From Escherichia coli (lineage in GTDB: Bacteria; Pseudomonadota; Gammaproteobacteria; Enterobacterales; Enterobacteriaceae), in the NCBI RefSeq assembly GCF_044324875.1, contig NZ_CP172185.1: a DNA stretch of 64,000 nucleotides; one strand, given 5' to 3'. The position numbers were made by a program, and so were the translations under genes. The notes beneath the pieces are model-generated. The model searched no databases, was not told the origin of the DNA, and saw only the letters and a list, made by a program, of their open reading frames with translations. Positions within the stretch are counted from its first letter, which is position 1, and the number at the start of each line of letters is the position of its first letter. Shown here piece after piece: positions 7,411-18,510 of this stretch.

Positions 7411-7611
7411 GTTAAGCATCCACAGGCTGGTATCTGCAACCGATTATAACGGATGCTTAACGTAATGCGTGAAGTATGGGCATACTTTATCAATTAGTGT
7501 TTTTTGCCGTTTCATAATGTTTCAGGTTGTGCATTATGTTTTTGATTATAAACAAATTTGTGATTTTTCTTGTTCCAGCTTGTTTCACGTTGTAGCCCTT
7601 TGTGCAACGAT

Positions 7612-7637
7612 CGGTGTAGTTAATGGTGTAGTTAATT
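7612..7637. repeat. attL core: CGGTGTAGTTAATGGTGTAGTTAATT
   Basis: Identical 26-mer at 18721-18746. It contains a tandem 12-mer GGTGTAGTTAAT x2. The imperfect repeat extends leftwards to 7580 (compare 18689). Confidence 0.85.
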
Positions 7638-7658
7638 GTGATGACCGGATTCAAAATT

Positions 7659-8888
7659 ATGAGCAGAGCACTTAACAAGCTGAGCGATACACAGCTAAGG
7701 AAAATCAACGGCACACCCGCCCAAAAAACAGCCTTTCTTAATGACGGTGGAAACTTGAGCGTCAGGCATTCAACCAGCGGCCTTTTAACCTGGTATTTCA
7801 CTTACAGGGCCGGAACGGGAAGGGGGGCATCACCGGAACGCATTAAGCTGGGAAATTATCCTGATCTGAGCCTGAAATCAGCCAGGGAAAAAGCCGCCCA
7901 GTGTCGCGCATGGCTGGCTGAGGGGAAAAATCCACGTCATGAGATGAATTACACCGTACAGGAAGCGTTAAAGCCTGTAACGGTTGGCGATGCGCTCACC
8001 TACTGGCTTGAGTCGTACGCAAAGGAAAACCGTGTGGATTATGACCCACTGAAAAAGCGGCTAAATAATCACGTAATACAGCACATTGGCCCTATGCCGC
8101 TGGATAAATGCGAGCTACGGCACTGGCTGGCCTGTTTTGATCGGGTGGCAAAGCAAGCCCCTGTTTCCGCCGGGTTCCTGCTACAGACATGCAAACAGGC
8201 GCTTAAGTTCTGCCGGAAGCGGCGCTATGCAATCAGCAACGTTCTTGATGATATGAGTGTGGCTGACGTTGGGAAAAAACCGGATATAGGCGAACGTGTC
8301 TTAAGTACCAAAGAACTGGGCGAATTATTGCAGGCACTGGACAAAAAAATATTTTCCCCTTACTACGTCGCACTAATCCGCCTCCTGATTGTTTTCGGAT
8401 GCCGGACAGTAGAACTGAGGTTATCGGAGATCGGCGAGTGGGATTTTACCGAAATGCTCTGGACCGTTCCGAAGGAGCACAGCAAAACGAAGGTAGCCAT
8501 ATTCCGGCCCATACCGGAAGCGATACTGCCGTTCGTCACGCAGCTGATGGAGCAGAACAGGCACACGGGCTTATTGCTGGGGGAAGTGAAACAGGAAACC
8601 AGCGTGTCGCAGTACGGCAGATTAGTGCACAGGAGGCTTAAACACCCTCACTGGTCACTGCATGACATCCGGCGCACCTTTACAACGATGCTGAACGATT
8701 TAGGCGTGGATCCTCACGTCGTGGAGCAGCTTACAGGCCACCAGATGCCAGGAATGCAGCGAGTTTATAATCATTCCCGTTATCTGGATGCGAAACGCAA
8801 TGCGCTGGATATGTGGACGGAGCGGTTAGGGATACTGGCGGGAGCACATGAAAACGTAACCACGCTACCAGTAACCAGAAGAAAATAA
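7659..8888 (+). CDS. int: P4-type tyrosine integrase (DUF4102 N-terminal arm-binding domain)
   Basis: The N-terminus MSRALNKLSDTQLRK...GNLSVRHSTSGLLTWYFTYR...LGNYPDLSLKSAREKA fits the DUF4102 pattern. The C-terminal catalytic region includes HDIRRTF and YNHSRY. The gene lies immediately inside attL. Confidence 0.9.
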   Translation: MSRALNKLSDTQLRKINGTPAQKTAFLNDGGNLSVRHSTSGLLTWYFTYRAGTGRGASPERIKLGNYPDLSLKSAREKAAQCRAWLAEGKNPRHEMNYTVQEALKPVTVGDALTYWLESYAKENRVDYDPLKKRLNNHVIQHIGPMPLDKCELRHWLACFDRVAKQAPVSAGFLLQTCKQALKFCRKRRYAISNVLDDMSVADVGKKPDIGERVLSTKELGELLQALDKKIFSPYYVALIRLLIVFGCRTVELRLSEIGEWDFTEMLWTVPKEHSKTKVAIFRPIPEAILPFVTQLMEQNRHTGLLLGEVKQETSVSQYGRLVHRRLKHPHWSLHDIRRTFTTMLNDLGVDPHVVEQLTGHQMPGMQRVYNHSRYLDAKRNALDMWTERLGILAGAHENVTTLPVTRRK

Positions 8889-9451: not shown

Positions 9452-9716
9452 AAAGACTGGCGGCACACAGCCGCCACCCATCCACTAATACAGAGATTTA
9501 ACCATGAAGACTGGATATACGCCCGAACAGGGGCGGGGCTTCGTTCGGCCTGGTGAAACTGAAAAACAACAAAATCGCGGTTTTTCAGGCATAAAAAAAG
9601 CGGCCCCGATAAGGAGCCGCCTTTCTGAACAATTAACCTACAGCGCAAAAAATGAATCTGAGCAGTGGGATTATATCAACCGTGCAACGAAGCGCCACAA
9701 TTGCCGGATAACGGGC

Positions 9717-10103: not shown

Positions 10104-10301
10104 ATGGCTGTAAGACAGCATACCCCACGACTAGCGCACACACAAACCGCCTTTGTGTGGCGTTTTCTGGCACTGAGTGCCGGAGAATCTCAAATCATCC
10201 ACGTAACCGCCTGGACGGAACGCGAAGCGCGTAGCCGTTGCCCGTCCGGTTGTGTTGCTGTATTCGCCGCCCGTATTCGTCAGGGGGTGTACCATGATTA
10301 A
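10104..10301 (+). CDS. Icd-like (host cell division inhibitor-like) small protein of P4-like elements
   Basis: The segment VTAWTEREARSRCPSGCVAVFAARI resembles the conserved core of Icd-like proteins annotated in P4-type islands, as I remember it. ATG 10104 follows GAGAGG. The longest ORF starts at 10089. Confidence 0.4.
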   Translation: MAVRQHTPRLAHTQTAFVWRFLALSAGESQIIHVTAWTEREARSRCPSGCVAVFAARIRQGVYHD

Positions 10302-10662
10302 CCTGTCACTTACCGATCTTAACCGCGTTCAGTTTCGTGAGAAATTTACCGGACAGCTACTCGTCAATGTGGAGAACGGGCGCATAGTGCGTAATTATCA
10401 CCTGCCGGATGGTGCAATTGCCGGAAGCGTTGAAGCATTGCTGGAACTGGCGGAACGTGCGCGACTGATTAAGCCGTCAACGAGCCATCACGATGATGAT
10501 CTGCATTTTACCGGATGTATGGTGAGTCACTACGAAAACGGCGTCGAGGTATCCTGCGAACGGCTGCGTGATGATTGCTGTTTCGGCACACTGCCGGAAT
10601 TTATCGAATTGCTGACCAGTTGCGGATATCAGGTTATTCAGGGGGTGCGCCATGTGCAATAA
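10291..10662 (+). CDS. hypothetical protein
   Basis: The ATG overlaps the upstream stop region (translational coupling). It is part of a tightly packed same-strand operon. No family was recognised. Confidence 0.5.
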   Translation, partial: TMINLSLTDLNRVQFREKFTGQLLVNVENGRIVRNYHLPDGAIAGSVEALLELAERARLIKPSTSHHDDDLHFTGCMVSHYENGVEVSCERLRDDCCFGTLPEFIELLTSCGYQVIQGVRHVQ

Positions 10663-11107
10663 CATCCGTCCGGACGCAGCAGGCGAAGCCATCATAACGC
10701 TAATGCACGCGCTGATTGATATTTCATGCACGGCAGCAACCGCAGAAAAACACATTACCAGAGAGCCGGAATATACAGGGGCAATAATCCCGCATTCGCT
10801 GGCCTACGCACAGCTAACCGCTGATATGGCGCTGAATGAGGCTAAAGCCATCCTGATTGCTGATTGTGAAAATGGGGGGGGGGTTATGCGTGATGATCGT
10901 TTTAATTCCCTGAAACAGGAATTTTCCGGCGTTCCTGATAATGCGGCTGATGCGCTTTCGTCAATATCTGAAATTATGCGGGTGGCTTTTTTCTTTCTTT
11001 GCACTGATGAGCACAGGGATACAGGGCTAAATATTCTTGATATCGCCGCTAATTATGCTGATTTCGTAACGGAAACTGTTTTAAGAAAAACGACGGACGG
11101 GGATTAA
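10652..11107 (+). CDS. hypothetical protein
   Basis: 151 aa. It overlaps the upstream gene by 11 nt. No family was recognised. Confidence 0.5.
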   Translation: MCNNIRPDAAGEAIITLMHALIDISCTAATAEKHITREPEYTGAIIPHSLAYAQLTADMALNEAKAILIADCENGGGVMRDDRFNSLKQEFSGVPDNAADALSSISEIMRVAFFFLCTDEHRDTGLNILDIAANYADFVTETVLRKTTDGD

Positions 11108-11108
11108 T

Positions 11109-11342
11109 ATGCGTGATATTTACCACGAAACAATAGACCGCGCATTTCTTGCACTTTCTCACAGTGAAAATATGTTGGAAATATTGCGCATATGTCTTGA
11201 AACGCTTGGAGATAATGAACGTGATAAACAGAAATCAATGATTGTCACGGCATTAATAACGCTTCTTGAGCCTGTAATAAATGAGTTGCAGGAAATAGAG
11301 ACATTACACGACCAGTATAAAGCGCCCCACACCGGAGAATAA
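11109..11342 (+). CDS. hypothetical protein (helical, acidic)
   Basis: 77 aa. It starts 1 nt after the preceding stop. No family was recognised. Confidence 0.45.
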   Translation: MRDIYHETIDRAFLALSHSENMLEILRICLETLGDNERDKQKSMIVTALITLLEPVINELQEIETLHDQYKAPHTGE

Positions 11343-11347
11343 AAAAC

Positions 11348-11635
11348 ATGAAAAATAAAAATTCTGGCGTTAATGCCAGCGGCCCCGCTCGTCCTGAAAT
11401 CCGTCCCGGCGATATTTTCCGTGATAACTACGGCGGCACGGTAATGATTAAGGGCGTGGAAGAACGGCGCGTAACCTACCGCCGTGATGGCTACGAATAT
11501 GACTGCGTTATGCCTGTTTATCAGTTCCGGCGTGATTTCACGCTGGTGGGCCATCGTAAAGCCGTTAATCAGAAACGTGCTGCAAGTTATATCCGCAAAA
11601 TCCGTGAAATGCTGGTCGCAGGGGGTAAGAAATGA
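11348..11635 (+). CDS. hypothetical protein, possibly DUF4222-like
   Basis: 95 aa. The pattern RPGDIFRDNYGGTVMIKGVEERRVTYRRDGYEYDCVMPVYQFRRDF resembles the small DUF4222 proteins of lambdoid phages; this is a low-certainty recollection. Its stop overlaps the rep start. Confidence 0.4.
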   Translation: MKNKNSGVNASGPARPEIRPGDIFRDNYGGTVMIKGVEERRVTYRRDGYEYDCVMPVYQFRRDFTLVGHRKAVNQKRAASYIRKIREMLVAGGKK

Positions 11636-13038
11636 AACTTGCACCGAACGTAAAACTGTTACCGAAAGATAAACACACTGAGGCGGTTATTTTTGCGGGT
11701 GATAATGCTCACTCCTTTGCAGAACATTACATGATTGCACAGGCCAAAAAAGCAGGCGATCCCATCCCTCCGGTTTACCTGGGCCGTTATCAGTTAAGCG
11801 AACTGGACAACTTACAGATTGTTGATGAAGGACGATACAGGGCAAAGGTCATACGCGCCGGAAACCTGGACGATATGCAGATGCTGACCATTGCCACAAA
11901 ACTGGCGATCGCCGGAGTCCAGGAGGCGCGCCTACTTTCTGAAAATTTCGAACTGCTGGAGGACTGGAGCGACCAGCTACCACGACTACGGGAAACATGG
12001 GAGAGAGGGGAAAGCCTGGTCATGAATGGCGGAAAGCGAAAAATCACACTTCCCATCTCATGGGGTTCTGAGGGATTCGATGCGCAGCAAAGCTACGTCA
12101 TTAAGGGGCTTATTCCGGCTGAGTCATTATGCAGCACCTACGGGGCCAGCGGTTCTTATAAATCGTTCCTCGCCATTTCCTGGTCGTGCCATGTTGCCAC
12201 AGGTATGGCATGGGGAGGCCGCAGGGTAAGTAAGGGTGCGGTTATCTATATCGCTGGCGAAGGCAGCATGGGCGTAAAACGCCGCGTTAAGGCGTGGGAG
12301 ATAACCCACGACAAGGTGGTTACAGATTTGTGCATCATTAACGCGCCTGTTTTCCCTGCATCGCCTGACTATGTGGAGCAGGTTATCAGGACTGCCGGAC
12401 TTGTTAAGAGCAGAACGGGCGAAAATGTGCGGCTGATTGTGATCGACACGCTGGCCCGTTGCTTTGGTGGGAATGATGAAAATGATTCCCGTGATATGGG
12501 CGCATTTATCCAGGGGTGTGACGCGATAAAGCAGGCCACAGGGGCCACGGTGCTGGTGGTTCACCATTCCGGCAAGGATGAAACAAAGGGGGCGCGTGGT
12601 TCCAGTGCATTCCGTGCCGCGCTTGATGCAGAGTACCGAATCAGCCGCGAAAATTCAGACGTTACAGCACTGGTCGCAGCATGTACGAAGATGAAGGACG
12701 CAGAGGAGCCAAAAGAGAGCGCATACGACCTTAAAAGCGTGGAGGTGTTCACCGATACAGATGGCGAAGAAATTGTGTCCATGGTGGTGATTGACGTTCC
12801 CCGCGCCCCTGCTGAACTGGAGCGCATCGAGGAGGCAGGCAACAAGACGGAAAACCATACCGCGCTATGGGGGTGCATCCGTTCACGCACACAGAACGGC
12901 GACAAGTGCACGATCCCGCTGTTACGTGATGACATGAAACGGCTTGGGTATGACGTGAAAAATATGCGGCGATGGTTAGCCAAACTGGAAAAAGACGCCG
13001 TGATTTACATTGATGGTGATGATGTAGGACCACTGTAA
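11632..13038 (+). CDS. RepA-like (AAA_25/RecA-fold) replication ATPase/helicase
   Basis: 468 aa with a Walker A-like GASGSYKS, Walker B LIVIDTLARC and VLVVHHSGKDETKGARGSSAF, typical of RepA/DnaB-like helicases. An iteron array follows immediately. Confidence 0.7.
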   Translation: MKLAPNVKLLPKDKHTEAVIFAGDNAHSFAEHYMIAQAKKAGDPIPPVYLGRYQLSELDNLQIVDEGRYRAKVIRAGNLDDMQMLTIATKLAIAGVQEARLLSENFELLEDWSDQLPRLRETWERGESLVMNGGKRKITLPISWGSEGFDAQQSYVIKGLIPAESLCSTYGASGSYKSFLAISWSCHVATGMAWGGRRVSKGAVIYIAGEGSMGVKRRVKAWEITHDKVVTDLCIINAPVFPASPDYVEQVIRTAGLVKSRTGENVRLIVIDTLARCFGGNDENDSRDMGAFIQGCDAIKQATGATVLVVHHSGKDETKGARGSSAFRAALDAEYRISRENSDVTALVAACTKMKDAEEPKESAYDLKSVEVFTDTDGEEIVSMVVIDVPRAPAELERIEEAGNKTENHTALWGCIRSRTQNGDKCTIPLLRDDMKRLGYDVKNMRRWLAKLEKDAVIYIDGDDVGPL

Positions 13039-13237
13039 AAAGTGAGTAGTAAAAGTGAGTAATGGTGAGGTTTTTACAAAATATTAACACAATTACTCAC
13101 TTTCTCACCTGTATACATGCTCAAAAGTGAGCAGTGAAAAAACACTTATGAAACATGCACATATAAAACACAAAAATCTCAAGTGAGACGAAGTGAGACG
13201 CTTTAAAAAGTGAGTAGTAAAAGTGAGAGATGGTGAG
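13037..13237. repeat. iteron-type replication origin candidate (AGTGAG repeats flanking an AT-rich core)
   Basis: A 33-nt repeat AAAAAGTGAGTAGTAAAAGTGAG(TA/AG)ATGGTGAG occurs at 13037-13069 and 13205-13237. An inverted CTCACTTTCTCACC lies at 13096-13109, AAGTGAGCAGTGA near 13125, and a tandem AAGTGAGACG x2 at 13181-13200. Confidence 0.65.
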
Positions 13238-14544: not shown

Positions 14545-14550
14545 GCACAC

Positions 14551-14573
14551 AGCCGGAGCAATCCGGCTTTTTT
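14551..14573 (+). terminator. intrinsic terminator ending the early/replication operon
   Basis: AGCCGGA-GCAA-TCCGGCT followed by TTTTT. Confidence 0.8.
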
Positions 14574-14784: not shown

Positions 14785-14991
14785 ATGGCAGAAGAGAAAA
14801 AAGGCGGGGTGACGGTCTACATAAGCCCCGACATCGTGGAGGCGCTCAAGGAACGCCACCAGCAGAATGTAAAAGCAGGCATTGCGGCAGGACTTGATCC
14901 GCTGGCGATGGTTGAGCCGTCAACAGGCTGGCAGGTGCGTACCTATTTACGTGCGGCGCTGGGTATCAATCAGGTTCACGGAGGTGAATAA
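14785..14991 (+). CDS. hypothetical small protein, first gene of the capsid operon
   Basis: 68 aa. AGAGGA Shine-Dalgarno. Its TAA overlaps the capsid ATG (TAATG). Confidence 0.5.
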   Translation: MAEEKKGGVTVYISPDIVEALKERHQQNVKAGIAAGLDPLAMVEPSTGWQVRTYLRAALGINQVHGGE

Positions 14992-16046
14992 TGACAGGCA
15001 AAGCAAAGGCACTTACAACTAACCAGCTTTTCGCGTACCTGAATCGCGGGGATATTTCGGAATATAAATTTAGTCCGCTGTTTACCACGCTGTTTTTCCC
15101 GAACGTGGCGACCTTCAACACCCAAAACATCATGCTGGACACCCTGGACATTGAAGAGGTTACGATGTCAGCGTTCTGTTCTCCTATGGTGGGTAGTCAG
15201 GTCCAGCGCGATAAAGGGTACGAAACCAGCACGATTAAACCAGGCTACATGAAGCCAAAGCACGAAATCGATCCAACAAAGACCATCATGCGCATGGATG
15301 GAGAAGATCCGGCACAGCTTAACGATCCAACTTACCGCCGTATGCGCCTGATTACTGGCAACATGCGCCGCCAGATAAACGCCATTAAGGCGCGCGTGGA
15401 ATGGCTGGCGGTGAATGCGGTAACGACCGGAAAAAACATCATTGAGGGCGAAGGCATAGAACGCTATGAAATCGACTGGAAAATACCGGAAAACTGCATC
15501 ATACAGCAGGCCAGTGGTAAAAAATGGTCCCAGCAGGATAAAGACATGCACGACCCAATCTATGACATCGAGCTTTATGCTGATCAGGCAGGTTGCCCCG
15601 CCAACGTCATGATTATGGGCGGTGAGGTATGGCGCACATTACGCAGCTTTAAAAAATTCCGTGAACTGTACGATCTTTCCCGTGGATCAGAATCCGCCGC
15701 CGAGCTGGCCTGTAAAAACCTGGGCGAAGTGGTGAGCTTTAAAGGCTATCTTGGTGATCTGGCCCTTATCGTCTATTCCGGCAAATACACTGACAGCGAC
15801 GGGACCGAAAAATATTTCCTTGAGCCTGATTTGCTGGTCCTGGGTAACACCAACAATAAAGGGCTGGTGGCATATGGTGCGATTATGGATCAGGAAGCGG
15901 TAAGAACGGGCGCAACGCAAAACATGTACTACCCGAAAAACTGGATTGAGGACGGCGATCCGGCGATTGAGTACGTGCAGACGCACAGCGCACCGCAGCC
16001 TGTACCGGCAGATATTCGCAAATTTGTTACCGTCAAAATTGCTTAA
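14991..16046 (+). CDS. major capsid protein, lambda gpE family
   Basis: 351 aa. It aligns by eye along its length with lambda gpE: FSPLFTTLFFPN vs FDPLFLRLFFRE, KPGYMKPKHEIDP vs TPGYVKPKHEVNP, YPKNWIEDGDPA..SAPQP vs YPKNWVTTGDPA..SAPLM, and C-terminal FVTVKIA vs FVSVQLA. Confidence 0.9.
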   Translation: MTGKAKALTTNQLFAYLNRGDISEYKFSPLFTTLFFPNVATFNTQNIMLDTLDIEEVTMSAFCSPMVGSQVQRDKGYETSTIKPGYMKPKHEIDPTKTIMRMDGEDPAQLNDPTYRRMRLITGNMRRQINAIKARVEWLAVNAVTTGKNIIEGEGIERYEIDWKIPENCIIQQASGKKWSQQDKDMHDPIYDIELYADQAGCPANVMIMGGEVWRTLRSFKKFRELYDLSRGSESAAELACKNLGEVVSFKGYLGDLALIVYSGKYTDSDGTEKYFLEPDLLVLGNTNNKGLVAYGAIMDQEAVRTGATQNMYYPKNWIEDGDPAIEYVQTHSAPQPVPADIRKFVTVKIA

Positions 16047-16057
16047 CGGGGGATTCT

Positions 16058-16393
16058 ATGGACGCTCCATACATTGAGTTATTTTCAGGCAGCCAACAGG
16101 TATCCACGACGCTGGTACATTTTGCCGCTGATGCTGGCGTTATTCAGGAATTTACCCCGCTGATGCTGGCAGACAATGGCGAGTTTAAGCCGTGGGATGG
16201 TAAGGAATCTGGCAAGGCTGTTTATCTGACCTCGTACCCTGTGGACACGTCAAAGCAGAAATCAGCACAGTGTTACAAGACGGGGATATTCAATATTGCC
16301 GCCGTTAACTGGCCTGACAGCGTCGACACCGATGCGAAAAAATGCGCCGCCTTTGCGGGTTCCGGCGTATCCGTTCAGCCGCTGGCCCGATAA
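16058..16393 (+). CDS. head decoration protein, lambda gpD family
   Basis: 111 aa (gpD is about 110). TPLMLADNGEFKPWDG vs lambda TPLMLDTSSRKLVAWDG; YKTGIFN..VNWP...KKCAAFAGSGVSV vs YKSGTFR..VLWP...KKRTAFAGTAISI. Confidence 0.85.
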   Translation: MDAPYIELFSGSQQVSTTLVHFAADAGVIQEFTPLMLADNGEFKPWDGKESGKAVYLTSYPVDTSKQKSAQCYKTGIFNIAAVNWPDSVDTDAKKCAAFAGSGVSVQPLAR

Positions 16394-16467
16394 GCAGGGG
16401 GAACGATGGCACAAACCAGGGCGATGACGGCGACATCTATCGCATACTGAAAACCATCTGAGACAAG

Positions 16468-16490
16468 GCCGGAGAAATCCGGCTTTTTTT
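16468..16490 (+). terminator. intrinsic terminator after the capsid operon
   Basis: GCCGGA-GAAA-TCCGGC followed by TTTTTTT. It is the same hairpin family as the terminator at 14551. Confidence 0.8.
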
Positions 16491-16710
16491 GCGGGTCCTT
16501 TCCGGCATGTGGACCCGTTACGGGGCGTCGACCTCGCACGTTTTCGCTATTTATGAAAATTTTCCGGGAAAAAGCATGTCAGTTCTTCTTGTTATTAACA
16601 TATTGTTTTTAAAGAAATAACTATCAAGAAAGAAACGACATCATAATGATGAAAAATCTGTTTTTTTTGGCATTTCATGTCGTAACTGATTTTTGATAAG
16701 GAATTGCTGA
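16491..16710 (+). other. lambda-type cos region (cosQ-like 16493-16505, cosN cohesive-end 12-mer 16523-16534, cosB-like R/IHF region to about 16700)
   Basis: GCGGGTCCTTTCCGG...GTTACG|GGGCGTCGACCT|CGCACGTTTTCGCTATTTATGAAAATTTTCCGG compares with lambda ACGGGTCCTTTCCGG...GTTACG|GGGCGGCGACCT|CGCGGGTTTTCGCTATTTATGAAAATTTTCCGG (lambda recalled from memory). R2-like AAGAAAGAAACGACAT. It lies directly upstream of the Nu1 homologue, as in lambda. Confidence 0.8.
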
Positions 16711-17295
16711 ATGAATGTTAATAAAAAGAGGCTTGCCGAAATTTTTAACGTGGACCCGCGGACGATTGAACGCTGGCAGTCACAGGGGCTTCCTTGCGTC
16801 TCCAAAGGCAGTAAGGGCATTGAATCTGTATTTGATACTGCCATGGCAATTCAGTGGTATGCGCGGAGGGAAACTGATATCGAAAACGAAAAGCTCCGCA
16901 AAGAACTGGACGATTTGCGTGCGGCAGCGGAGTCAGATTTACAACCCGGCACCATTGACTATGAACGCTATCGGCTCACAAAAGCGCAGGCAGATGCGCA
17001 GGAACTTAAAAACGAGCGCGATCGCGGTGACGTGATTGATACAGAGTTTTGCATGTACGCGCTTTCAAAACTGGCGAGTCAGATTTCATCAATCATGGAC
17101 AGCCTCCCGCTTACTATGCAAAGGAGCTTCCCACAGATGACCCCCGCCATGCTGGATGGCCTGAAAAAAGAAGTTGTCAGAGCCTGTAACGCATGCACAA
17201 AACTTGATGAAAACATCCCGCGAATGCTGTCCGATTATCTGATGGAAACTACCGGAAATGTGCCTGATAAGTTTCAGCCGGATAAAGACAAGTAA
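16711..17295 (+). CDS. terminase small subunit, lambda Nu1 family
   Basis: [28 protein letters not shown]... vs lambda MEVNKKQLADIFGASIRTIQNWQEQGMP. A long conserved block is shared: IENEKLR...[26 protein letters not shown]. 194 aa vs 181 in lambda. Confidence 0.9.
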
Positions 17296-17313
17296 CGTAG
17301 TGCACAATGACCG

Positions 17314-17336
17314 AAGCCAGTTTACTGACTGGCTTT
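17314..17336 (+). terminator. hairpin after the Nu1-like gene
   Basis: AAGCCAGT-TTACTG-ACTGGCTT followed by T. The U-tract is short. Confidence 0.4.
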
Positions 17337-17635: not shown

Positions 17636-17935
17636 ATGGAGGACATGACCATGACCGAGACCGAAGCGCTCGGGATAATCCGCAGTATTACCGGAATCAG
17701 CCAGCAGGCTGGCGAACAGGAGGCCACGCAGCCGGACAGCGTGATCGCCGAAAATTACGTGCGTGTTGTTGCTGATGTAATGCGCCGTGATGGTATTGAG
17801 CTTAACGGCGTGGATATGCGCGACATACGAATCAGAGTACTAGAGTTGCTGGCATACCGTCGACGCGTGGCGATGTATCAGGAGAGCGCGAAAAACACTT
17901 ATCAGTGGAAGAAGCCGGAGCGGTTACGGCGGTAA
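17636..17935 (+). CDS. hypothetical protein (accessory position between packaging gene and attR)
   Basis: About 99 aa from ATG 17636, with AAGGAGG 13 nt upstream. The longest ORF starts at 17537. No family was recognised. Confidence 0.4.
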   Translation: MEDMTMTETEALGIIRSITGISQQAGEQEATQPDSVIAENYVRVVADVMRRDGIELNGVDMRDIRIRVLELLAYRRRVAMYQESAKNTYQWKKPERLRR

Positions 17936-17937
17936 CT

Positions 17938-18510
17938 GGTTGATATTTTCGAAATTCGCCAGCGGCGAACATCGGGGAAACCAGCCTAACCAGTTGATTC
18001 TTTCGGAAACAGCCATTGGCGGAATCCGGCGCGGTAACTTGCTGATATTCCCGATAACGCAAAATTGCGCTGGCTACATCCCTCACATCTGAGGACTGAT
18101 AATGCGACATTGCGCTGGCTGGCAAAGTGCAAAATTGCACGATGGCCTAACCCATTGATTATTTCGAAAACCTGCAATGCAGGAAATCGGGGAAGTAAGC
18201 CTAAGCTATTGATTCTTTCGGAAACCTCAATTTGAGGAAGTCGGCGCGGTAACTCGCTGAACTTAAAGCAAACCTCAAAATTGAGCTGGCTGAATAATCA
18301 TTATGATTACGCAGATGATTAAGGAATGACCGAAGGCGGAAATTCGCCTGTGGTTGATGGGGGAGTTGCAGATCTGCAACTCGACCATGAAACTACGGAA
18401 ACTACCCGTAGTTTGGGTAGTAAGAGTAACACCCAGATTTTGGGACTTACTCGTGATACCCAAATTTGGAGTATCGGTGGCAACCATAACGACTTTCGTT
18501 ACGGTTGATG
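17938..18510. repeat. non-coding array of about 15 short palindromes/hairpins embedded in a duplicated scaffold
   Basis: Two homologous units (about 17941-18076 and 18155-18292) share flanks such as TTGATTCTTTCGGAAAC and CGGCGCGGTAACT. They carry different palindromes at the same three positions. Further palindromes continue to a 12-bp-stem hairpin at 18481-18507. Confidence 0.7.

Follow-up and report, generated by a model that had tools for sequence, protein, structure and literature searches.

PICIs, a type of phage satellite, spread virulence and defence genes in E. coli, and the only way of hijacking cos packaging that has, to our knowledge, been characterised in E. coli PICIs is that of Rpp, which depends on the small terminase subunit (TerS) of the helper. 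In Rpp PICIs of the EcCICFT073 type, int, alpA and a rep/ori module are found together with genes for a gpE-like capsid protein and a gpD-like decoration protein (PMC6092414; PMC6739421; PMC9026076), the last two being c1499 and c1500 in EcCICFT073 (PMC6092414); their cosQ and cosN are near-identical to those of lambda-like helpers, their cosB is unlike that of lambda, and a protein with a TerS-type winged HTH is encoded directly after cos. Conserved cosQ and cosN, a non-lambda cosB and an adjoining TerS-like DNA-binding protein are thus already known as a combination in E. coli PICIs (PMC6092414; PMC6739421; PMC9026076).

The island described here, found in a 64,000-nucleotide stretch of E. 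coli DNA (the window), shares all of these features with the EcCICFT073-type PICIs but departs from them in several others. It lacks Rpp and encodes a full-length 194-aa TerS of the Nu1 family with its own homologue of the TerL-binding region; its cosB has the canonical phage-type order R3-I1-R2-R1 and is of the 21 class, whereas that of Rpp PICIs is a novel sequence without R boxes; and it has one cos site where EcCICFT073 has two, a second having been looked for across the window and found absent. When TerS, the downstream ORF and the concatenated other island ORFs were compared with the PDB, none matched RppC (6HLK; 6HN7 chain A), Rpp being a protein of 139-154 aa encoded after cos. What is new relative to the published system is a full chimeric TerS in place of Rpp, a canonical R3-I1-R2-R1 cosB, and an exchangeable cassette set on a satellite-specific C-terminal module. 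We think it probable that positions 16492-16710 are the packaging site of an 11.1-kb PICI-type satellite, that this site is a three-part mosaic with 21-class specificity, and that it works through a full-length TerS that engages the large terminase subunit (TerL) of a helper.

The element is bounded by direct repeats and carries the following main genes upstream of cos:

7563 to 7637 (no strand): attL, the left copy of a 75-nt direct repeat, whose exact 25-nt core GGTGTAGTTAATGGTGTAGTTAATT is found at the right end
7638 to 8888 (plus strand): the island tyrosine integrase, with Arm-DNA-bind_3 and Phage_integrase domains
11632 to 13038 (plus strand): a RepA-family replicative helicase (AAA_25)
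14991 to 16046 (plus strand): a major capsid protein homologue of the lambda gpE family, 351 aa
16058 to 16393 (plus strand): a head decoration protein homologue of the lambda gpD family, 111 aa
18672 to 18746 (no strand): attR, the right copy of the repeat

The two repeat copies are spaced 11,109 bp apart, which is also the length of the island unit, and the island sits between roxA and phoQ. Its content comprises int, alpA, Icd-like genes, DUF4222, the RepA-family helicase with ori iterons immediately 3' of its gene (13033-13069 and 13201-13237), SSB, PerC, the gpE-family and gpD-family genes, cos, terS and a 94-aa ORF; TerL, portal, tail and lysis genes were sought within the island and none was found. 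This is the layout of Gram-negative PICIs (a 10-15 kb element that has att repeats, int, alpA and an ori-bearing replication module and is devoid of lysis and tail genes), and the PICI of strain IHE3034, which is listed as TerS-encoding (PMC6092414), has the same architecture. The 11.1-kb island is a PICI-type phage satellite of the EcCI-IHE3034 kind. It is not a capsid-forming PICI (cf-PICI), which would need TerL, portal, protease and connectors, as its only capsid or packaging genes are those for the gpE-like and gpD-like proteins and TerS. In the rest of the 64-kb window, where we sought a helper prophage, there is ordinary chromosome (phoPQ, purB, icd, bluF, ycgH etc.) and no terminase.

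The packaging site was compared with known phages by aligning window positions 16440-17320 to the lambda ends (NC_001416), the phage 21 cos (M81255, OL657228) and PhiR5_1, the best phage match. From 16492 to 16710 there is a complete and correctly spaced lambda-type cos, in the order cosQ-cosN-I2-R3-I1-R2-R1, preceded by a hairpin:

16467 to 16490 (plus strand): GC-rich hairpin with T7 after it, resembling a terminator, dG about -19 kcal/mol, immediately 5' of cosQ; part of the island backbone and 100% identical to island L004
16492 to 16505 (plus strand): cosQ block CGGGTCCTTTCCGG, identical at 14/14 positions to the lambda right end and some 30 bp upstream from the nick
16523 to 16534 (plus strand): cosN cohesive-end sequence GGGCGTCGACCT, against GGGCGGCGACCT in lambda; 11/12 identical to both lambda and 21 (G6T)
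16535 to 16567 (plus strand): cosN flank and I2 block, with bases 30-44 from the nick as in lambda
16572 to 16587 (plus strand): R3, AAGCATGTCAGTTCTT, bp 50-65 from the nick, with G at bp 56 (21 type) and A at bp 59
16596 to 16608 (plus strand): I1, a putative IHF site assigned from its homologous position, with 11/13 identity to I1 as annotated in phage 21
16630 to 16645 (minus strand): R2, inverted, reading TATGATGTCGTTTCTT on the minus strand
16673 to 16688 (plus strand): R1, TTTCATGTCGTAACTG

On the top strand, the nick is predicted to fall between 16522 and 16523. An earlier note on this DNA had compared the site with the lambda ends, and on alignment to the lambda record every one of its sequence statements stands. 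The first 45 nt past the nick (16523-16567) match lambda at 42 positions; the 12-nt cohesive end is one base off lambda, the change creating GTCGAC; and the cosQ region keeps the lambda register to GTTACG and to the nick. The order of R3, I1, R2 and R1 is recognisable in the strings GTTCTTCTT, TTGTTTTTA, AAGAAAGAAACGACAT and ATGTCGT, whose positions are those of the same elements in the annotated phage 21 cos, and cosB (16568-16710) is, as claimed, much diverged, at 52% identity to lambda. With R2 inverted, R3 at about bp 50-65 and terS starting some 190 bp after the nick (here at +188, the spacing that had been counted; phage 21 has 188 nt, lambda 190), the site has the form of a complex cosB. 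The Nu1 homologue is indeed longer than that of lambda, at 194 aa against 181, through a C-terminal extension of 12-13 aa. Chance does not account for the match to a lambda-type cos: the window has one copy of the cosN 20-mer against 0.01 expected, and BLAST comparisons with phage cos regions gave E-values of 1e-156 to 5e-162.

We considered G6T as an island-private form of cosN and rejected the idea, since 12 IMG/VR contigs have the identical 20-mer, among them several genuine phage operons with TerS and TerL and one two-cos island of the Rpp-like kind; G6T is a common polymorphism. The possibility that some related islands are without cosN was likewise rejected, their cos sites having variant right halves of the cohesive end.

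The earlier note had also proposed that the pair of cosB and TerS has a specificity of its own, and this part does not survive comparison with phage 21. There is no difference between lambda and 21 at cosQ and cosN (PMC4669245), each phage favours its own DNA over that of the other more than 1000-fold in packaging (PMC4669245; PMC9026076), and the genetically defined discriminators between them are TerS residues 20 and 24 and bp 56 and 59 of R3 (PMC4669245; PMC9026076). In the island TerS, residues 20 and 24 are E and S, the residues of phage 21 (Q and E in lambda); bp 56 of the R box is G in R3, R2 and R1, as in 21 (T in lambda); and bp 59 is A in R3 and G in R2 and R1, where 21 has G and lambda C. 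The 3' halves of the R boxes are lambda-like. The two halves of the island protein are encoded as follows:

16711 to 17010 (plus strand): TerS N-terminal half, residues 1-100, DNA 96.7% identical to phage 21 gp1
17011 to 17295 (plus strand): TerS C-terminal half, residues 101-194, the island version of the Nu1 TerL-binding region, with a low-confidence tail at residues 183-194

Residues 1-54 are identical at 51 of 54 positions to the solved 21-type domain (PDB 7LWR). Judged by these markers, the cosB/TerS pair belongs to the known phage-21 specificity class, though its cosB and DNA-binding domain come from different donors. Since the cosB is of the PhiR5_1 type, with A at bp 59 of R3, and the DNA-binding domain is of the 21 type, the fit between the two is putative. 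The pair would discriminate against helpers of lambda specificity, not against those of the 21/PhiR5_1 type.

Sliding-window identity over the region defines segments with different nearest relatives:

16420 to 16539: terminator-like hairpin, cosQ and cosN including T6; nearest to another island (TUM1886, L004), 98-100%
16540 to 16739: I2 flank, R3-I1-R2-R1 and RBS; nearest to phage PhiR5_1, 88-98%, with other islands at only 40-65%
16740 to about 17000: TerS residues ~10-97; nearest to phage 21 gp1, 98-100%
about 16980 onward: TerS residues ~95-194 and downstream sequence; nearest to islands L004 and L009, 100%

The region is, on this evidence, a recombination mosaic of an island backbone (hairpin, cosQ and cosN), a swapped-in cassette and an island TerS C-terminal half. 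The DNA-binding domains of L004 and L009 are quite unlike that of the window island, and the window island and L009 differ at none of 258 nt of the C-terminal half, against saturated synonymous divergence (pS 0.8) in the N-terminal half. Because the C-terminal half is 100% identical at the DNA level to that of islands with other DNA-binding domains, a cassette of ~460 bp (16540-17000), holding cosB and the DNA-binding/coiled-coil half of TerS, has recombined into a constant backbone. Its left junction falls near 16540, in the cosN/I2 block, and its right junction at codons ~95-100 in the middle of terS, and both of these are stretches conserved among all lambda-like phages. A single donor of the whole cassette was sought in complete E. 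coli genomes, where the best match reached only 88.4%, so that the cassette is itself a mosaic.

These matches bear on two further proposals of the earlier note. It had described the DNA conservation as specific to the site, and this holds only relative to lambda: since lambda and 21 share cosQ and cosN, and since the hairpin, cosQ and cosN match other islands and the remainder matches other phages, the conservation at cos is not site-specific. It had also suggested that the sites contacted by TerL are kept while cosB is different. In this the reading as a satellite cos stands, with cosQ, cosN and I2 being family-wide conserved parts, as does the presence of a cosB unlike that of lambda alongside an island Nu1 homologue; a private specificity of the pair is the part that falls.

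A close precedent for the chimera is the lambda-21 hybrid hy51 (Frackman/Feiss; PMC4669245; PMC9026076), in which a 21-type cosB and the N-terminal half of gp1 are likewise joined mid-gene to a C-terminal half of another TerL-binding class, the junction lying in the same conserved stretch (codons ~95-100 in the island terS). The differences are that hy51 was made in the laboratory and has the lambda C-terminal half, whereas the island is natural, has a satellite-specific C-terminal half and carries a PhiR5_1-like cosB instead of that of 21 itself. Islands of this kind would serve as a natural experiment on both specificity domains of the lambda-type TerS, for DNA recognition and for TerL binding, which have previously been dissected mainly with laboratory lambda-21 hybrids.

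It is TerS's C-terminal half, with its 12-aa tail, and not cosB, that is truly specific to the island. The island TerS as a whole is 53% identical to lambda Nu1, and the Pfam Phage_Nu1 model spans its residues 1-161; an AF2 model has a winged HTH (helix 16-24), two long helices, a helical C-terminal domain (111-180) and a low-confidence tail. Homologues that share the C-terminal half are 193-200 aa long and have in common the elements VIDTxF and RACNAC and the tail TTGNVP(D/E)K. The island C-terminal half was found in none of 50,697 phage records, the nearest of which reaches 54%, and a profile search of contigs of species-representative genomes returned no match, whereas ~750-790 of 5,426 complete E. 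coli genomes (~14%) carry it. TerL lies downstream in none of 43 related loci, against 7/7 phage controls, and the window island likewise has terS without terL, as a satellite-encoded TerS strategy requires. A dN/dS of 0.09-0.2 indicates purifying selection on the C-terminal half, which is thus both satellite-specific and under selection.

These findings also bear on the possibility that cos and the Nu1 homologue are the end of a decayed prophage, a non-functional lambdoid remnant that has lost gene A and all that lay downstream. Such a loss would account for the missing TerL and other late genes after terS. We consider it very improbable, however: the terS ORF is intact in hundreds of genomes, its C-terminal half is distinct, conserved, selected, never linked to TerL and absent from phage records, and the element around it has the att repeats, int, alpA and rep/ori of a complete PICI-type unit. 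For annotation, this means that an orphan "terminase small subunit" beside a lambda-like cos is the sign of a satellite, not of a broken prophage.

The same C-terminal half is joined to at least five phage-type DNA-binding domains, each with a matching cosB. The N-terminal types found on it are that of 21 (the window island), lambda (P0047), an N15-like type (P0108, IHE3034), which is the majority, a Gifsy/Citrobacter-like type (P0005), the type of the P0046 prophage (P0013) and a further type (P0014-17). In every island case examined the upstream R boxes agree with the recognition helix: lambda boxes go with a lambda helix, AGATCC with the P0005 helix, CATGTCGG with helices like that of 21, and the N15-like domain with a simple cosB. 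In these comparisons cosB and the DNA-binding domain vary together while the C-terminal half stays constant, which implies that the island TerS reads the island cosB.

This co-variation is evidence against another use of the site, in which the TerS of a helper of 21/PhiR5_1 specificity would itself bind the island cosB, and the island TerS would be redundant or act mainly as an interference factor. SaPIbov5 and P4 are served in this way: they have a helper-type cos and no TerL, as does the window island, and SaPIbov5 has a capsid-protein homologue (Ccm) comparable to the island gpE homologue, but they encode no TerS, whereas the island has one that co-varies with cosB. Recognition by a helper would agree with the 88-98% identity of the island cosB to that of PhiR5_1, with the presence of the T6 cosN variant in genuine TerS and TerL operons, and with the finding that cloned PICI cos sites alone give some transfer by lambda and phi80 (PMC6092414). 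That a terS with nothing essential to do should nonetheless stay intact and under selection in ~14% of complete E. coli genomes is hard to reconcile with it, and we regard this explanation as distinctly improbable.

If the island TerS does read the island cosB, its C-terminal half may provide the contact with the helper. In lambda, TerS residues 100-181 bind TerL (PMC6739421; PMC9026076), and by homology to this region of Nu1 it is plausible that the island C-terminal half binds a helper TerL; the capture of helper gpA proposed in the earlier note is plausible too. Among seven phages, TerS C-terminal tails and TerL N-termini sort into the same three classes, namely lambda/phi80/N15, 21/Gifsy-1 and PhiR5_1/PhiR12; the island C-terminal half is nearest to the PhiR5_1/P0046 class, at 54-56% identity, and is 38-56% identical to any phage class. 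This distance leaves direct TerL binding less than guaranteed, and a hetero-oligomer could take its place: the island TerS would co-assemble with helper TerS through its dimerisation/coiled-coil region (~40-100), the mixed oligomers would bind the island cosB, the helper TerS would supply the TerL contact, and packaging would be redirected and the helper poisoned. Rpp acts in exactly this way with helper TerS (PMC6739421; PMC9026076), and the central region of Nu1 is the most conserved part of the alignment, ENEKLR... being invariant or nearly so. We think such co-assembly unlikely here, because the island C-terminal half is clearly homologous to the TerL-binding region and under purifying selection, and because it stays constant while DNA-binding domains change, which would be needless if it had no partner. 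Mixed dimers would, moreover, have two recognition helices, yet the three R boxes of the island cosB are of one type.

We therefore return to direct use of helper TerL as the preferred reading, and the steps that it would involve can be set out in order. A lambdoid helper would induce the island, which would replicate as concatemers. Island TerS dimers would bind R3 and R2 across an IHF bend at I1, and the TerS C-terminal half would recruit helper TerL, the island having none of its own. Helper TerL would then nick the top strand of cosN at 16522/16523 and its bottom strand at a distance of 12 nt, translocate the DNA and terminate at a cosQ/cosN further downstream. A head of lambda size would be filled by four units of 11.1 kb (44 kb), provided that the island gpE and gpD homologues do not alter head size; the DNA of EcCICFT073 is packaged at phage size (PMC6092414). 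If the helper were of lambda specificity, the island alone would be packaged, owing to its 21-type cosB/TerS pair.

Several observations count against this model. First, resident prophages did not mobilise the PICIs of strains IHE3034 and 18098, both of which encode TerS (PMC6092414). Second, the exact TerS variant of the window occupies a single chromosomal site in all 107 inspected contigs, a pattern that gives no sign of recent mobility. Third, the terminator-like hairpin lies just upstream of cos, and a search between it and the terS ATG found no sigma-70-like promoter.

The proposed arrangement resembles, by analogy, the TerS_S strategy of SaPIs moved to cos packaging. Pac-type SaPIs with their own TerS (TerS_S) and Ppi also have a small terminase without a large one, which would pair with helper TerL to package satellite DNA only (PMC6739421), and they too have a small conserved gene adjoining terS, which in the window island is the 94-aa ORF. 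They differ in that packaging there is headful and here cos-type, and in that the TerS families are unrelated, that of the island being Nu1. In the literature searched, the coverage of which is incomplete, we found no published mechanism for a Nu1-type PICI TerS and nothing on PhiR phages. A chimeric Nu1-type TerS in about 1/7 of complete E. coli genomes would be a second hijack route, independent of helper TerS.

It is also possible, if somewhat doubtful, that the C-terminal half with its TTGNVP(D/E)K tail is a satellite device for seizing helper TerL, that the 94-aa ORF is a Ppi-like partner of it, and that the two make up a third packaging-hijack strategy of cos satellites beside Rpp and plain carriage of cos. 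If this were true, the cassette of cosB and DNA-binding domain would be swapped freely with phages, and a satellite could re-assign its specificity (21, lambda, N15 and others) while keeping one TerL-capture module. The candidate partner lies beyond terS:

17651 to 17935 (plus strand): conserved 94-aa ORF, phrog_1561

Neither the annotations of its homologues nor its AF2 model give a sign of likeness to Ppi: all 948 homologues are called "hypothetical" and are without a Pfam family, and the model (pLDDT 69) is an uninformative set of three helices. The ORF is a regular companion of the gene: of 58 related loci, 55 have it 3' of a TerS of the island type.

Natural chimeric TerS proteins occur in phages as well as in satellites: in those of group P0050 (837 member sequences) the DNA-binding domain is of 21 type and the C-terminal half of lambda class, and the TerS of locus L020 joins a domain of the Gifsy/Citrobacter-like type P0005 to a 21-class C-terminal half and is followed by TerL. 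Because these phage chimeras exist, TerS domain shuffling is not limited to islands; shuffling at the conserved mid-gene junction stretch is general, in islands and phages alike. In island cos sites (loci L065-L077, L044, L049, L012, and L088), the cohesive end retains its left half (GGGCG[G/T]), and base pairs 7-12 vary (CAGACG, AAGGCG, CAGGCG, and CAGCTG), in agreement with the variability of this right half reported for lambda-like phages. Features of the window island and of two other loci are as follows.

Features of the island and of two other loci (window coordinates unless a locus is named)
13033-13069 and 13201-13237: pair of 37-nt direct repeats with 92% identity, just 3' of the helicase gene
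14547-14573: GC hairpin and T-run, after perC
14991-16393: gpE-family capsid and gpD-family decoration genes
16467-16490: GC hairpin and T-run, immediately 5' of cosQ
17651-17935: 94-aa ORF, phrog_1561, without a Pfam family
L025 (IMGVR_UViG_2851955134_000006, 12.3-kb contig), 9529-9548 and 10292-10311: two T6-type cos sites, inverted
L003 (E. coli GF4), 10438-11795: island segment

With its two cos sites, one followed by a gene for a 146-aa HTH protein, L025 resembles EcCICFT073, which also has two, and it looks like a PICI of the Rpp type.

The capsid gene precedes the decoration gene in the window island, whereas in lambda the order is D then E, and a 137-aa "head-tail connector" gene, found between the decoration gene and cos in related islands, is missing. 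The GF4 island, at the same roxA/phoQ site, has the capsid module and lacks terS, and of the downstream ORF it carries just a frameshifted remnant. Among 58 related loci, 55 have the 94-aa ORF after island-type terS; the 948 close homologues of this ORF are all annotated "hypothetical", and its AF2 model has three helices at low confidence. Speculatively, it may be a packaging accessory.

The two GC hairpins are nearly identical and look like terminators; the interval from the cosQ-proximal hairpin to terS showed no sigma-70-like promoter. The 37-nt repeats are probably ori iterons of the island. Between the 94-aa ORF and attR, at 17933-18291, lie three 23-nt GATAAYGCRAMATTGCGCTGGCT-like repeats and a direct repeat of 113 nt with 74% identity.
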